From positions 1-28,175 of the forward strand of contig CBDFFH010000024.1 in the NCBI GenBank assembly GCA_965246715.1: DNA of 28,175 bases. The letters run 5' to 3'. The notes beneath the pieces were generated by a model. The model saw only the letters and a program-made list of their open reading frames with translations, did no database searches and was not told where the DNA came from. This stretch comes from Chamaesiphon sp. Its GTDB lineage: Bacteria; Cyanobacteriota; Cyanobacteriia; Cyanobacteriales; Chamaesiphonaceae. Both the position numbers and the translations under genes were made by a program. Positions 4,376 through 23,948 of the stretch are shown here, piece after piece. Position 1 is the stretch's first letter; every line of letters starts with the position of its first letter.

Positions 4376-4738
4376 ATGAGAGCTTTTATGTCTACCATTC
4401 AATTAGAGTTACCTATGTTGAAACTTACTTCACTAGCGTTGGCGCAGCCTATCGGAACGATAATCGGGTTAATCACGATCGTCTCCTTTGCACCCAAGTC
4501 TGAAGCGATGAGCGCAAATGTTCAGCCGTCGTCGTTGCAGCAACCAGCCGGAAACCTTCACTCCCAAATTATTTTCCGAATCGGCGATCGTGGCTATACT
4601 CGCCGTGAAGAATGGCAGTATCGTCGCGACTTGAAGATGCAGCAACGACGAGCGGAACGTCGCCAATACAGCCGTGAGGGTGGATATAACCGTAATGGTG
4701 GATATAACCGCGATGGTCAAAATCGCCGAGATCGCTAA
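4376..4738 (+). CDS. Hypothetical secreted protein with Arg/Gly-rich C-terminus
   Basis: Hydrophobic segment ending SEA (signal-peptide like). 18-bp tandem repeat GGTGGATATAACCG at 4679 and 4697 encodes GGYNR twice. True start may be a downstream Met. Confidence 0.6.
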   Translation: MRAFMSTIQLELPMLKLTSLALAQPIGTIIGLITIVSFAPKSEAMSANVQPSSLQQPAGNLHSQIIFRIGDRGYTRREEWQYRRDLKMQQRRAERRQYSREGGYNRNGGYNRDGQNRRDR

Positions 4739-8202: not shown

Positions 8203-9620
8203 GGCTCTCCTAGACTAGTTATGACAAATCAATACTAATAAATTATTAAAATTGCTAAAAATCGCAAAATAAATTTACCCAGAACTTTTACCTAGCATTG
8301 ACTAGAGGGTACATATTGTGATATCAAGAAATCAATCAAAGTAGCTAGAAAATGTGTTTTTACTAAAATGCCATCTAACTCTCTGCTCCATTTTATTACT
8401 AAAGTCATTAATTTTGAAGGATTTCAAGCTAGAAATTATTATTTTATTACTGAAAATGAGTTAATGATTGAGTTGGAAAATAAAGCAAAAGAAGTAATTT
8501 GTCCCCACTGCAATAAAAGTACTGATAAAGTCCATCAATCTCATTGGTATCGGGTCAGAGATATTCCTGGTAGTGGTTGGGATATTTTTTTAAATGTAAA
8601 TCGTCGTCAGTTTAGATGTAGAAGCTGCTCTCAACTCTTTTCTGAGGAGTTAAATTTTATTAAAAAAAGAAGAACCTACACCAAAAGACTAGCAAAGAAA
8701 ATAATAGAGGAAGTCTTAGAAACAGATATTGTTAATACAGCCAAAAGAAATAGAATCACTCCAGCGGAGATCGAAACAATTCTCAAAGAAGTAGAAGAAG
8801 ATTGTTTGAGTGAAAAGCCAACCGAACTAAAACGGTTAGGAATAGATGAGATTACCCATTTAAAAGGAGGAAGAAATTATGTAGCAGTGTTGGTAGATAT
8901 AGACAAGCGAAAACCGATAGCACTCCTAGAGAAAAGAAACAAAGAGACAATACTAGAATACTTGCGGGGATTAGGCTCAGAGTTATTAAATCAAATAGAA
9001 GAGGTGAGCATAGATCTTTGGGTTCCTTATAAAAGTGTGGTAGAGGAATTAATACCCAATGCACGAGTAGTAGCAGACAGATTTCACGTTATGAAACAAA
9101 TTAATGAGGAATTAGATCGTGAGAGAAGAAGAGAAAAAAGAGCAGCAAATAAAATCAAGAACAAGAAAGAAAGAGATCGGAAAATTCAGGTAATTACGCA
9201 CAGCAAGTATCCCTTACTCAAGAGCAAAGAAAACTTAAACGAGCGAGAAAAAGACAAATTAGCAGAAGTCCAAAAGTCAATGCCAAGCTTAATAAAAATG
9301 TATCAAATGAAGGAAGATTTTCGAGATATACTCAACCGTAAGATAACAGAAGATGAGGCATTTTGGTGTTTGGTAGAATGGATGGCATTAGCTTATCAGA
9401 AGTTCCCACAAAGCTGTCAAACTATCAAAAGATGGTTTGAAGAGATTCTGGCTTATTTTAATCACCGGACAACTCAAGGAGCGGTCGAGGGAATCAATCA
9501 AAAAATTAAACTAATTAAAAGAAGAGCTTATGGCTTAACTAATTTTGCCAACTTCCGAAGAAGAGTCTTATTAAATTGGCATTTTTGCTATTAATTTTTC
9601 ATAGCTAGTCTAGGAGAGCC
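8203..9620 (+). mobile_element. ISL3-family insertion sequence, 1418 bp, complete
   Basis: Terminal IRs GGCTCTCCTAGACTAG(T/C)TATGA..., 27/30 identical. 8-bp target duplication AATATTTT at 8195-8202 and 9621-9628. Confidence 0.95.
8368..9594 (+). CDS. ISL3-family transposase
   Basis: Zinc finger CPHC...CRSC; GIDE, SIDLW, ADRFHV and VEGINQKIKLIKRRAYG motifs; uninterrupted. Confidence 0.95.
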   Translation: MPSNSLLHFITKVINFEGFQARNYYFITENELMIELENKAKEVICPHCNKSTDKVHQSHWYRVRDIPGSGWDIFLNVNRRQFRCRSCSQLFSEELNFIKKRRTYTKRLAKKIIEEVLETDIVNTAKRNRITPAEIETILKEVEEDCLSEKPTELKRLGIDEITHLKGGRNYVAVLVDIDKRKPIALLEKRNKETILEYLRGLGSELLNQIEEVSIDLWVPYKSVVEELIPNARVVADRFHVMKQINEELDRERRREKRAANKIKNKKERDRKIQVITHSKYPLLKSKENLNEREKDKLAEVQKSMPSLIKMYQMKEDFRDILNRKITEDEAFWCLVEWMALAYQKFPQSCQTIKRWFEEILAYFNHRTTQGAVEGINQKIKLIKRRAYGLTNFANFRRRVLLNWHFCY

Positions 9621-10288
9621 AATATTTTTTAGCAATAAACCTGCTGTCAAATTATCTTTATTAGTCACAATAGCAGTTGCTCTGAGTATTTGGATGGGAA
9701 GTAATCCTATTTCTCTTCAGCATGGAAAATTATCAGTTCCAGTTACAACTTCCACGGTTACTTCCAATAATTCAACCCAACAAATTCAACCGCAAGTTTA
9801 TTGGTTACGATCGAATCAAAACAAACTAACTCTAGTTGCCAAATCATTACCATCGAATACACCAAGTTCTAGTTCCCCACAGCAAGGATTAACAATCGCC
9901 ATGCAACAATTACTAGCAGCCCAACCTCGTGATGATTTGAGCAGTACGATTCCTAAAGGTACCAAGCTGCTGAATTTGCAAGTTCGTGCTGATGGGGTGC
10001 ATGTTGACTTATCGCCAGAATTTCGATCTGGTGGTGGTAGTACCTCAATGATTTATCGAGTCGCACAGGTGATTTATACAGCTACCAGCCTCGATCCCAA
10101 TCGAGAGATTTTTCTCTCTGTCGGCGGACAATCGATCGATAATAACCATCCATTATGTGGTGAAGGATTAATCTTGCAGCAACCGACTACCCGCGATTCT
10201 CCAGAGGAGCAACTAAGCCGACATTTTACGTCGTTTAAGGGATGAAAGAAACTGCTCTAGGACACTGACAAGCAATTATGCTAGAGAA

Positions 10289-10439
10289 GTGCCCTGACAG
10301 TTAAGACCGAAGCCTCACTGGTGCGATAGCAGCCCGAAAAGGAGCATGGTTCTGAGCTACGTGGTAATAAGATTGGCGAAGGAATAATAATCCTATCCCG
10401 TTTAGAAGACTTTACAGCGACCCACTCAGGTCAGAGCAC
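10289..10439 (+). ncRNA. Putative IS110 bridge/seek RNA
   Basis: Closing stem GTGCCCTGAC (10289-98)/GTCAGAGCAC (10430-39) and inner stem CTGAG/CTCAG. Guide-like segments CGAAGCCTC, AAAGGAG and TTAGAAG match the target and donor junction. TATGCT -10-like box at 10277-82. Confidence 0.7.
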
Positions 10440-10466
10440 CTATTCTTCACCCAAAAGAAGGAAAAA

Positions 10467-11237
10467 ATGGTTAAACCAAAAGTAGAACCGGAACTCAAGA
10501 GAGTTCATCCTCAAGCAGCAGGAATAGACATTGGAGCTTCAGAACATTGGGTCAGTATCCCCAGCGAACCAGATCCAGAGCCAGTGAGGAAGTTTAGCTG
10601 TTTTACAGCCGACCTGTACGCCATCGCTGAATGGCTAAAATCGCGCGGGATTACCACAGTAGCAATGGAATCAACGGGAGTATATTGGATTCCGTTGTTT
10701 CAAATCTTGGAAACCAGCGGATTAGAAGTCCGGTTGGTAAATGCTCACTTCGTCAAGACAGTGCCTGGTCGCAAGAGCATTGATGGATTGGAAGCACTGA
10801 GTGTTCAGGCAATTATTTCCGAAGTAGGTTTAGATCCTACTCGTTTTCCTACCTCCAAGCATTTCACCTCGTGGCTGGGCATTTGTCCTGGCAGTAAGAT
10901 TAGCGGTGGTAAAATCCTCAGCTCTAAAACTCGCAAGGTGGTCAATCGAGCCTCAAATGCTTTTCGGATTGCTGCTCAATCCTTAGCTAATAGTCAGACT
11001 GCTTTAGGTGGTTTCTATCGCCGGATTCGTACCCGTTCTGGCGCGCCCATTGCAATTACGGCAACGGCTCATAAGCTAGCGCGGATTTTTTATCACTTGT
11101 GGACGACAGGGGAAGATTTTGTGGATGCTGGTGCAGAAGCTTATGAGCAACAATACCAACAACGGGTGCTCCAGCATATCAAACAACGGGCGAAGAAAAT
11201 GGGCTTCGATCTAGTTCCTGAGCTAATTGTGGGTTAA
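10467..11237 (+). pseudogene. IS110 recombinase with in-frame internal deletion
   Basis: N-terminal DEDD domain (AGIDIG, AMESTGVYW) runs to VPGRKS and jumps directly to IDGLEALS...ISEVG...WLGICP..KISGGK. The DxxD pair and coiled-coil linker are absent; junction near 10778. Confidence 0.85.
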
Positions 11238-11319
11238 GTTTCTTAGAAGAGGCTCCGCCAACGGTTTGCTGCTGATTTTCTCTAATTTGTAAACATAACC
11301 AACAACAGGAATTAATAAC

Positions 11320-11676: not shown

Positions 11677-11885
11677 AGCAATTCCAAATTCAAAATATTC
11701 TACCGATTTCTTACCAACAGTCGATGGCGAAGCCTTTCTGCTGAGGCAGACGCTCCGCGAACGGAACGAAAATCTTTGCTAGTGGGGTTGGGCGGGTTTG
11801 TTTGGTATTTATTGGTAAAATCTGGACTAGTTAGCATAAACCCGCCGCTACAACATATAGAAATGAGCTTGAATTTGTAATTGCT
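11677..11885. mobile_element. MITE-like element (~209 bp) containing nested hairpin repeats
   Basis: 17-bp IR AGCAATT(C/A)CAAATTCAA, 16/17 identical. Contains an SDR-like repeat (11726-11766) and a REP-like IR GGCGGGTTT...AAACCCGCC (11791-11846). No clear TSD. Confidence 0.55.
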
Positions 11886-12050: not shown

Positions 12051-13553
12051 ACGCACTTAAATTTGTTATTACTAAAAACTTTGACGATCGAATGAATAAA
12101 TAGCATCTAGAAATCTTGTAATTACTGCTAGGTAATAGTTAGAGCTAATTAACTATGTTAGAATTTAACAAATTTAATTTAACTAAAATGAAGCTGAAGC
12201 CAAAATATAGTATTATAGAACACTTCGAGAGTGTAGAAGACTACAGGACAGAGCGCGGGAAAAAGCATAAATTAATTGATATCATCACCATTACCATTTG
12301 TGCTGTAGTATCTGGAGCTGATACATGGATAGATATAGAAATTTATGGTTTGGCGAAGAAGGAATGGCTAGGTAAATTTTTAGAGTTGCCGCATGGTATT
12401 CCATCACATGATACATTTGGAAGGGTATTTTCACGAATTAATCCTGAAGAATTTCAAAAAAGTTTCCTGAGTTGGGTTAAAGGAATATCTAAAATAACAG
12501 CAGGAGAAATAATTGCACTTGACGGCAAACAATCTCGAAATTCAGGAGATAATACTAATGGACAAGGTGTACTAAATACTGTTAGTGCATGGGCTGTAAC
12601 TAATAGATTAGTATTAGGACAGAAAATGGTTGAGGGCAAATCTAATGAAATCACAGCACTTCCTGAATTAATTAAAGTTCTAGATTTAGCCGGATGTATA
12701 GTTACCATTGATGCAATGGGATGTCAAAGAGAAATAGTAAAAAAAATTGTTGAAAAAGATGCAGATTATGTAATTGCTGTGAAAAAGAATCAACCAAGTT
12801 TATACGACCAAGTAGAAAGGCTATTTAAACAGGCTATTGCAACTGGTGGCGCAGGTTTCAATCTGAGTGATTTCAGGACTAAGGAGATTAATGGGGGTAG
12901 GGAAGAAATCCGTAATTATTTAATGATATCAGATGTTGCCGATCGAATAGATTCATCCCATAACTGGATGAAATTGACTAGTATTGCGATGGTTGAATCA
13001 GTAAGAACTATTGGGGATAAAACCACCGTAGAGACTCGTTATTTTATTAGTAGTTTAGCTAATAATGCCAAGAGAGTCGCCGGAGCAATTAGAGGTCATT
13101 GGGGGATAGAAAATTCACTTCATTGGGTACTTGATGTTTCTTTAAGAGAAGATTATAGTCGAATTAGGAAAGATAATGCGCCAGCTAATTTTGCAGTATT
13201 ACGGCACATAGCTATTAACTTAATTAGTCAAAATAAAAGTCGGAAATTAAGTGTGAAAAGCAAGAGATTTCTAGCAGGTATAGATGACAAATACTTGGCT
13301 GAAATTTTAGAAGGTATTTTATAATTTACGAACTATTGGTTGAAATCAAATTACTTCTATAATATATCGACGATTTAAGTTATTCCTTCGATCGACTACT
13401 TTATATTGCATTAAATTAAATAAATATTGCCTTATACTATACATCAGTTCTAATTGAATTCGTCGTAAATGTATTTAGTTCATAAATACTGCTTAAGTTG
13501 TATGTATTATTGAATTCGATCGCCTCATATCAAGTTTTGATGCGTTTAACCTG
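12043..13553 (+). mobile_element. ISAs1-family insertion sequence, 1511 bp, without target duplication
   Basis: Terminal IR CAGGTTAAACGCA / TGCGTTTAACCTG (13 bp perfect, continuing imperfectly). Flanks CCTATCCCGA and CTTCAATCTC are unrelated. Confidence 0.92.
12188..13324 (+). CDS. ISAs1-family transposase
   Basis: GIPSHDTF, IALDGK, KSNEITA, TIDAMGCQ and HWGIENSLHWVLDV motifs. Start is either 12188 or 12155. Confidence 0.95.
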   Translation: MKLKPKYSIIEHFESVEDYRTERGKKHKLIDIITITICAVVSGADTWIDIEIYGLAKKEWLGKFLELPHGIPSHDTFGRVFSRINPEEFQKSFLSWVKGISKITAGEIIALDGKQSRNSGDNTNGQGVLNTVSAWAVTNRLVLGQKMVEGKSNEITALPELIKVLDLAGCIVTIDAMGCQREIVKKIVEKDADYVIAVKKNQPSLYDQVERLFKQAIATGGAGFNLSDFRTKEINGGREEIRNYLMISDVADRIDSSHNWMKLTSIAMVESVRTIGDKTTVETRYFISSLANNAKRVAGAIRGHWGIENSLHWVLDVSLREDYSRIRKDNAPANFAVLRHIAINLISQNKSRKLSVKSKRFLAGIDDKYLAEILEGIL

Positions 13554-19677: not shown

Positions 19678-20055
19678 TTAATAATACTGTTCAAAATTTT
19701 CAATCCATTTTGCTTTAGCCTTCTGACAGTAATCCTTACAATCAACTGCTCGATCGGTCATGACGGTGACTGGATGGAGAGCACATTTAAGATAGTGATT
19801 ATCATTAAAATATCGACAGCGAGAACATGTAATAGTGAGGGGCAGCGTTACTTTAGATGAATTCTGCTTGCGCTTGGGACTGCGAGCATAAATTAGCACG
19901 CCGATTGTCAAGAATATTCCCATGCTAACGATCGTTCCCCATGCGACAGGTGGAGGCAATGGGGGTGGAGTATCCAGACCATTTACCCTTCGCTGACTTG
20001 AAATAACAATGAAGTTGGCGGAGCCTGTCAGCATAATGGTCGAACTGGCTTGCAT
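19678..20055 (-). CDS. Small membrane protein with Cys/His-rich metal-binding C-terminus (DUF6464-like)
   Basis: One TM helix followed by CSRCRYF..YLKCALHP...DCKDY; AGGA RBS upstream. Confidence 0.7.
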   Translation of the reverse strand: MQASSTIMLTGSANFIVISSQRRVNGLDTPPPLPPPVAWGTIVSMGIFLTIGVLIYARSPKRKQNSSKVTLPLTITCSRCRYFNDNHYLKCALHPVTVMTDRAVDCKDYCQKAKAKWIENFEQYY

Positions 20056-23870: not shown

Positions 23871-23948
23871 CGATTACCTCCGGTAGGCTACGCCAACGAC
23901 ACAATTACTGACACTCGATTACCTCTTGGCGCGGCTACGCCAACGACA
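23871..23948 (+). repeat. Two SDR-like repeats in imperfect tandem, each between CGAT and CG
   Basis: CGAT-TACCTCCGGTA-GGCTACGCCAA-CG and CGAT-TACCTCTTGGCGC-GGCTACGCCAA-CG. Confidence 0.7.

Follow-up and report, generated by a model that had tools for sequence, protein, structure and literature searches.

The IS110-family element analysed here lies in a 28,175-nt stretch of Chamaesiphon DNA that we call the window, where it interrupts a 24-nt twin-hairpin repeat. We propose that a bridge-type RNA guides its insertion at the AG of that repeat, and that the donor loop of this RNA reads the element's own ends as a single DNA strand folded back on itself, a reading to which we give a probability of about 0.65. 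By sequence comparison, all four guides and one handshake base covary with the DNA that they would read, and inverted repeats together with a hairpin bracket the junction. These comparisons make it very likely that the repeat is targeted by RNA guides.

The element occupies positions 10208-11249 and carries AG at either end (Table 1). AG is the core in 90 of 99 family cores, and in every genus copy examined divergence from the window starts right outside the AG dinucleotides. The element thus has the short common core, with no larger duplication, of the IS110 family, and the copies bear out the ends proposed in an earlier note on this sequence. The coordinates given there for CGAAGCCTC (10308-10316), AAAGGAG (10338-10344), TTAGAAG (10402-10408) and the two AGs (10208-10209 and 11248-11249) were all verified. 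About 257 nt of non-coding DNA lie upstream of the transposase gene and 10 nt downstream, the layout of the IS110 group. The sub-terminal inverted repeat is perfect over 8 bp in the window and forms a 7-8 bp stem over 89 junctions.

The transposase carries a deletion absent from the earlier note. Residues 1-105 are fused to 295-442 of the 442-aa relative L084, so that the middle of the protein and the second aspartate pair of the DEDD motif are gone. The DEDD RuvC domain and the Tnp domain (PF02371) with its SG motif place the protein in IS110, with full motifs in the intact L084. Because the gene lacks these 570 bp, the window copy is likely unable to move alone. Transposase frames are open in the genus relatives L083, L084 and L102; no intact transposase was found in the window's assembly, where two more IS110 copies (G000 C6:8272-9309 and C53:67526-68360) are both broken by a frameshift, a stop or a contig end. 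Transposases of the ISL3 (8368-9594) and DDE_Tnp_1 (12155-13324) types flank the locus within 2 kb.

Table 1. Features of the element, its predicted RNA and its insertion site, in window positions.
Feature	Position	Strand	Basis
Host GerMN-domain gene; last codons extended in frame by the repeat, later replaced by IS sequence	9694..10245	+	Pfam PF10646; orthologue ends
HIP1-type site, left part (GCGAT), split by the 24-nt repeat	10193..10197	+	Uninterrupted in orthologue L293
Left part of 24-nt repeat (left target)	10198..10207	+	Repeat-family counts; genus left junctions
AG core, left junction (CT on minus strand)	10208..10209	+	Copies' flanks diverge there
Left-end DNA hairpin (firm stem 10219-10233); predicted inner stem of folded donor	10214..10237	-	DNA folding; kept in RNA-less mini-elements
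Site X, same-strand match of 5' donor-loop guide	10236..10240	+	Covariation; 3/5 in window copy
Left sub-terminal inverted repeat (AAGAAACT)	10246..10253	+	Complementary to 11237-11244; covariation at variable positions over 89 junctions
Possible -10 box (TATGCT) for the RNA; weak	10277..10282	+	TA...T at same offset in 26/122 elements
Predicted bridge-type RNA, target loop and donor loop	10288..10440	+	Covariance model; pair counts
Target loop 5' guide, complement of right target half and core G	10310..10316	+	2.95 vs 1.67 of 6 in shuffles, 43 lineages; independent pairs 27:7
Target loop 3' guide, identical to left target plus AG	10338..10344	+	4.51 vs 2.45 of 6 in shuffles, 53 guide pairs; independent pairs 43:1
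Handshake-type dinucleotide, equal to first two bases inside left end	10345..10346	+	Second base 45/50 vs 14.8 expected
Donor loop 5' guide; matches site X, not core-adjacent bases	10365..10371	+	Covariation
Donor loop 3' guide, identical to element's last 5 bases plus AG	10402..10408	+	7/7 positions in 42/42 retained rows; four of the positions vary
IS110 transposase, 256 aa, with in-frame 570-bp deletion at 10778/10779	10467..11237	+	Pfam PF01548 and PF02371; NCBIfam NF033542; comparison with L084
Right sub-terminal inverted repeat (AGTTTCTT), 3 nt from core	11237..11244	+	Sequence and folding of junctions
AG core, right junction	11248..11249	+	Flank comparison across copies
Right part of 24-nt repeat (right target)	11250..11261	+	Repeat family; genus junctions
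HIP1-type site, right part (CGG)	11262..11264	+	Orthologue comparison

The interrupted repeat follows the pattern TCTC-N5-GAGAGGCT-N-CGCCAA. The exact 24-nt pattern has 58 copies in the genome and 0 for a reversed control, and a loose pattern finds 91 copies against 0 in two base shuffles, with GAT preceding 69 and CG coming after 89 of the 91. The repeat occurs in all 27 genus genomes and in 47 of the 101 genomes searched (control 0). Orthologues of the host gene at 15 readable loci (16 were fetched, one of them cut off) carry neither the repeat nor the IS, and L293 has an uninterrupted GCGAT^CGG. These orthologues indicate the order of events at the site (window 9694-10245 and 11250-11285): a HIP1-type site within the final codons of the GerMN gene received the 24-nt repeat in frame, as eight codons, and the IS later replaced the GerMN C-terminus. 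That the repeat is an excision footprint or a part of the IS was rejected, since orthologues lack both, the repeat lacks AG ends and tens of its copies are free of IS.

The repeat entered precisely between HIP1 bases 3 and 4, mostly in a CGATCG core and not in the full octamer. In this it resembles SDR5, a tiny repeat of in-frame length placed at the same position (GCGAT^CG on the opposite strand), a likeness of insertion site; the cut position reported for SDR5 in HIP1 (PMC4390886) matches that of the window repeat. As far as the text of these sources goes, SDRs are reported in Nostocaceae only (SDR5 known via PMC4390886 and PMC5861425), unlike the window repeat, which is in Chamaesiphon and also flanks a Nodosilinea copy (L001). 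Searches for SDR1 and SDR5 found nothing. The window holds more half-matches to the repeat family (4439-4451, 20015-20027 and 23884-23943) and a small-repeat composite at about 11723-11763, downstream of a DUF4342 gene.

Insertion in this repeat extends across the genus. Right ends, found largely with a flank-blind pattern in a set of kin that includes the window, start with AGGCT in 28 of 33 cases, with 3 more one base off and 2 unrelated, and 24 of 32 right flanks lie within two mismatches of the repeat half. By a loose test all 48 left-junction rows fit a TCTC-like repeat start, 2 of them being mis-parsed right ends, which leaves 46 true rows. The earlier note had inferred an AG-core bridge-type system homing to the repeat and had proposed aligning the flanks of other copies as a check; that alignment, together with the covariation of both target guides described below, supports the system it inferred.

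Non-autonomous mini-elements of 127-155 nt (L106, L159, L171, L177, L186, L188, L189, L190, L194 and L198) or 183 nt (L108) sit mostly at the same AG of the 24-nt repeat. Each combines a left end of about 45 nt, extending through the inverted repeat, with the right end, and between the two a palindromic repeat of another kind serves as filler; devoid of the RNA, they retain hairpin, site X and inverted repeat. The closing pair of their hairpin exchanges A-T for G-C (12 vs 11 among 26 distinct mini left ends). Like the window copy, the mini-elements of about 130 nt would require an intact transposase in trans. The filler palindrome has 11 motif copies in the window's assembly (G000), where left-end-only relatives are also found (C15, C27, C36 and C41), and L171 carries an extra copy of the 24-nt repeat internally.

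Cyanobacterial relatives occupy other repeats. In G220 the target is a perfect palindrome (L117, L143-L146), and G251 and G112 have short tandem repeats in its place (L121, L147-L150; L156), each matched by the element's own left-target guide. Tandem elements, in which a right end is directly followed by a left end, occur at L013, L057, L067, L123, L222, L242 and L255, and at two of these loci, L013 and L067, the left-target guide is identical to an element end.

The predicted RNA draws its structural support from relatives. The earlier note had described an RNA of about 150 nt with two arms and proposed folding it and building a covariance model. Both were done: the window sequence alone folds no better than shuffles (z 0.23), and the two-arm structure stands on an alignment of 55 relatives, which shows a symmetric internal loop in the target arm and a hairpin in the donor arm. 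In this consensus, derived from the same alignment that was used for the pair counts, 98% of cells are paired and 10 of 19 pairs show two-sided changes, against 35-48% pairing in slid controls; outer donor stems were not recovered from it. The covariance model matches the window at 10288-10438 with 121 bits, the window being among its training sequences, and Rfam gave no match for the predicted RNA. An initial sequence pattern had found 0 matches, and a second parsed 99 loci, failed on 31 and parsed 28 of 81 held-out loci; the covariance model replaced both. It gave 207 matches, 203 of them full and 156 with inverted repeat and protein, from which 122 distinct elements were placed on a protein tree.

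A consensus scan found no sense promoter for the RNA. On the minus strand a promoter-like site is directed against the RNA start (window 10304-10275; 9/12, 0.3 expected by chance) and may itself be due to chance; ISPpu9 is reported to have an antisense RNA (PMC12288879). Contigs from RNA libraries (X1, X18-X20) are mostly relatives' copies and give neither strand nor RNA ends. The joints listed from these contigs, which cannot show absence, include no end-to-end back-joint. We also considered that the left-end hairpin might be a mere 5' part of the RNA, which is disfavoured because RNA-less mini-elements keep the hairpin and the minus strand folds better.

The target loop behaves as expected of an IS110-family RNA, both of its guides covarying with target DNA. 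Matches of the left-target guide to its own flank, and of the right-target guide to its own target half, are well above shuffles, the latter clearly in register 0 only; comparison of own with crossed pairings in independent pairs on the 122-element tree agrees for both (Table 1). In L116, L117, L143-L146, L048-L051, L061 and L007 the right-target match is shifted one base outward, with an extra G after the core. Covariation had been proposed in the earlier note as a check on the guides, and both target guides as well as the left-donor guide covary with their DNA across relatives. The mismatches that it had placed in variable parts of the repeat do fall there, at repeat positions 7 and 18. Its 8/9 match of the right-target guide has the right coordinates and is too long: the leading CG belongs to a conserved stem motif (C20, C21 and G22, each conserved to at least 90% even where elements have unrelated targets), which leaves a working guide of about 6-7 nt. 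Within the genus the AAGCCT right-half guide is invariant in 13 of 13 left-end rows where it is readable, and agreement between the left-target guide and the repeat loop is weak (3.0 vs 2.56 of 5, p 0.045, 12 pairs).

Next to the left-target guide stands a handshake-type dinucleotide, as in IS621. Its first base agrees with the left end in 50 of 50 cases (46 expected) and its second base is the variable one, in a count from which three lineages were dropped and in which six cores were assigned manually. In the donor loop, the 3' guide follows the right end at every position in the 42 rows that remain of 43 after one was dropped as mis-parsed.

The fourth guide departs from the IS621 arrangement, in which two donor guides on opposite strands flank the core: the right-end guide is present and its core-adjacent partner is absent. 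A canonical right-donor guide was rejected, with eight registers at most 0.3 of 7 letters above shuffles and a best-match scan that was also negative. The earlier note, too, had found no convincing right-donor guide; no canonical one exists, and what it missed is a guide at 10365-10369 with a same-strand match to 10236-10240. (It had also missed the handshake dinucleotide, the sub-terminal inverted repeats and the relative ISPpu9.) A column scan of the donor-loop 5' side against the left end, over 50 lineages, revealed a diagonal of identity with the five-base site X (best column 88% vs 36%) and no complementarity diagonal beside the core. Site X lies 3' of the left-end hairpin, 5 nt ahead of the sub-terminal inverted repeat. 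A reverse-complement match of the 5' donor guide anywhere in the left end is at chance (4.37 vs 4.41).

The match to site X replicates. With the register fixed beforehand, 20 held-out metagenome elements, drawn from the 28 of 81 loci that were parsed, gave 3.4 vs 2.2 of 5, a value reached in 0 of 2000 shuffles. Over all 122 elements the match is 3.64 vs 1.74 of 5, with neighbouring shifts at most 0.45 above shuffles, which reflects kinship and repeats. Independent pairs favour it by 28:5 with 13 ties (p 3e-5; 122 elements), by 13:1 in the metagenome set and by 17:4 in the genome set, and at 85 differing sites 34 changes are concordant and 3 swapped. Agreement is 3 of 5 in the window copy and 2-4 of 5 in four genus relatives; in 23 of the 122 elements no more than 2 of 5 positions agree, some of these elements probably being mis-registered.

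Identity of the 5' donor guide with the plus strand means that it would pair with the minus strand, the strand that is also read by the other donor guide. Since the two guides of one loop bind antiparallel strands, the minus strand would have to fold back or open widely. DNA folding is consistent with the former. In counts that include kin, modelled junction strands fold as stem, bubble and stem with a mean z of -2.33, 49 of 89 falling below -2 and the bubble being on average 51-70% unpaired, and of 99 left ends, 68 fold better as the minus strand and 26 as the plus strand. The two bubble arms differ in length by about 2 nt. The window's own junction reaches a z of -1.08 only.

We suggest the following course of events. 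Copy-out of the minus, CT-core strand would yield a single-stranded circle. IS621 is reported to copy out its core-bearing strand in single-stranded form (10.64898/2026.08.31.748434), single-stranded copy-out is also reported for CazIS110 (10.1101/2025.10.25.684509), and in IS621 the CT strand is reported to be exchanged first (PMC11208158). Pairing of the two inverted repeats would give an outer stem and the left-end hairpin an inner one, with a bubble between them. One bubble arm would bear the core and be exchanged, and the returning arm, the complement of X, would substitute for the absent second strand. At the target, opening of the repeat would fall to the target loop, with most of the hold coming from the invariant right-half guide and the core, and the insertion would be completed by host replication.

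It is possible, however, that the strand opens without folding back. The 5' donor guide might pair with the minus strand at X in an opened or cruciform duplex, or in a separate half-matched complex such as two donor loops during excision, and no folded single-stranded donor would then be needed. This fits all the covariation results equally, and half-matching with excision by the donor loop alone is reported for IS621 (10.64898/2026.08.31.748434). It also fits the ISPpu9 report, in which a left-end palindrome mutant still gave wild-type minicircles; that finding speaks against a folded donor, within an end-point PCR assay that does not extend to insertion, and its authors leave a role of the palindrome in efficiency or integration possible (PMC12288879). 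Two further points weigh against folding: CazIS110 is reported to prefer double-stranded donors about 20-fold at one junction (10.1101/2025.10.25.684509), and inverted repeats are equally to be expected where a protein binds duplex DNA. We nevertheless think an opened duplex unlikely to be the whole account, because alone it leaves unexplained both the minus-strand folding bias and the fixed distance of X from the left inverted repeat, by which X lands opposite the core-proximal bases on folding.

A further alternative is that the donor is recognised by the 3' donor guide and by protein contacts on the inverted repeats, as in IS1111, and that the identity of guide and X is a functionless duplication or conversion relic. 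The weak match in the window copy and the genus fits such a relic, as do the poorly matching elements noted above. We find this improbable: the match persists over proteins about 50-90% identical to L084 and over many different guide sequences, and guide and X follow independent changes (34:3) in a register-specific manner. That the repeat is chosen mainly through its DNA hairpin or a protein preference, as the specificity added by a target stem-loop in ISPpu10 and the loose match of the left guide to the repeat's variable loop might suggest, is very hard to sustain when relatives with other guides use other, matching targets and the right-half guide is the same in all readable genus rows; the hairpin may still contribute as a structural gate, by analogy with ISPpu10.

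Repeat targeting alone makes this element a new member of a known habit, as IS621, ISPpu9 and ISPpu10 are reported to target REPs. The folded donor would be the novelty. The literature we searched, which includes PMC13626964, 10.64898/2026.08.14.744561, 10.1101/2025.05.14.653916 and 10.64898/2026.10.21.760802, yielded neither a folded donor nor a repeat-targeting cyanobacterial IS110; figures, some supplements and subscription papers lie outside that scope and may bear on the point. Whether IS110 intermediates are single- or double-stranded is debated in papers of 2025-26 (10.1101/2025.10.25.684509, 10.64898/2026.08.31.748434, PMC13626964). If a donor loop requires two antiparallel strands, it can engage a plain single-stranded circle only in part, and this clade offers a solution encoded in sequence. 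We lean slightly towards the broader view that in a broad clade of IS110 recombinases of about 440 aa, from cyanobacteria, Proteobacteria, Acidobacteria and others and probably with ISPpu9 among them, the bridge RNA has been rewired so that it reads a folded, attC-like single strand, which would make the copy-out circle a complete substrate.

If true, this would account for the lack of a right-donor guide beside the core in the clade, tool builders would have to retain about 55 nt of the left end, and the way would point toward genome writing from ssDNA donors with programmable single-strand DNA integrases. For cyanobacteria, the system is a natural one whose target repeat is present in tens of copies per genome. 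The clade's integrases would here be aimed at a HIP1-splitting repeat and carry mini-elements of about 130 nt.

The closest described relative, by end layout and by motifs compared by eye, is ISPpu9 of Pseudomonas putida with its mini-element MITEPpu9 (IS110 group; PMC12288879). Both have AG cores at either end, a dispersed repeat as target, a left-end palindrome, a mini-element and an upstream non-coding region. By eye, the published end boxes of ISPpu9 contain an inverted repeat that agrees at 7 of 8 positions and lies 3 nt from the right AG (PMC12288879), and its cluster row in the Durrant supplement (PMC11208160), a cluster representative only, has domain motifs in common with the element. 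The target differs, being a REP for ISPpu9 and a 24-nt cyanobacterial HIP1-splitting repeat here. The text of the ISPpu9 report leaves the guides unmapped, describes the group as lacking inverted repeats and proposes no folded donor (PMC12288879).

With IS621 and ISCro4 (PMC11208160, PMC11208158, 10.1101/2025.05.14.653916; PDB 8wt6) the element shares the DEDD and Tnp domains, a two-loop RNA upstream of the gene, CCG and TGG motifs that frame the guides (assigned by eye on the IS621 template), a dinucleotide core and handshake bases; handshake guides are reported for IS621 (PMC11208158), with a design code in the supplement of PMC11208160. The guide order, which the earlier note described as opposite to that of IS621, is so on the gene strand and is identical when read on the minus strand, where the core is CT. 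On the sequences compared, the "reversed order" is an inversion of the element's ends relative to its gene, and the core strand is accordingly opposite to the gene strand, unlike in IS621. The transposase is of about 440 aa vs 328, with remote similarity (E 1e-4). The fourth guide would pair not beside the core but about 27 nt inside the end, with the strand that the third guide also reads, and the inverted repeats span 8 bp vs 2-3 bp in IS621.

The seekRNA elements of the IS1111 group (ISEc11, ISPa11 and ISKpn4; PMC11187229) resemble the window element in that the top-strand match lies 5' of the bottom-strand match. They differ in the placement of the non-coding region, which is downstream in IS1111 and upstream here, and in a transposase of 330-350 aa vs about 440 (PMC11187229). 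Among the rows listed from the Durrant supplement (PMC11208160), the one with an ISfinder name that looks closest by eye is the ISAzo22/ISCARN20 cluster. A further likeness to IS1111 lies in the sub-terminal inverted repeats and in the 3-nt distance of the right one from the end; these repeats set the element apart from the IS110 group, where they are absent or very short. In IS1111 the inverted repeats are spaced 3 nt and 7 nt from the ends, and the left one of the window element differs in lying 36 nt inside, behind the hairpin. Judged from its sequence, the element therefore mixes the groups, with the upstream RNA and long transposase of IS110 and the inverted repeats and gene-strand guide order of IS1111. 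Finally, with no homology implied to the integron, whose tyrosine integrase works without an RNA guide, a parallel to the proposed donor is attC, where one folded strand serves as a pseudo-duplex recombination substrate.
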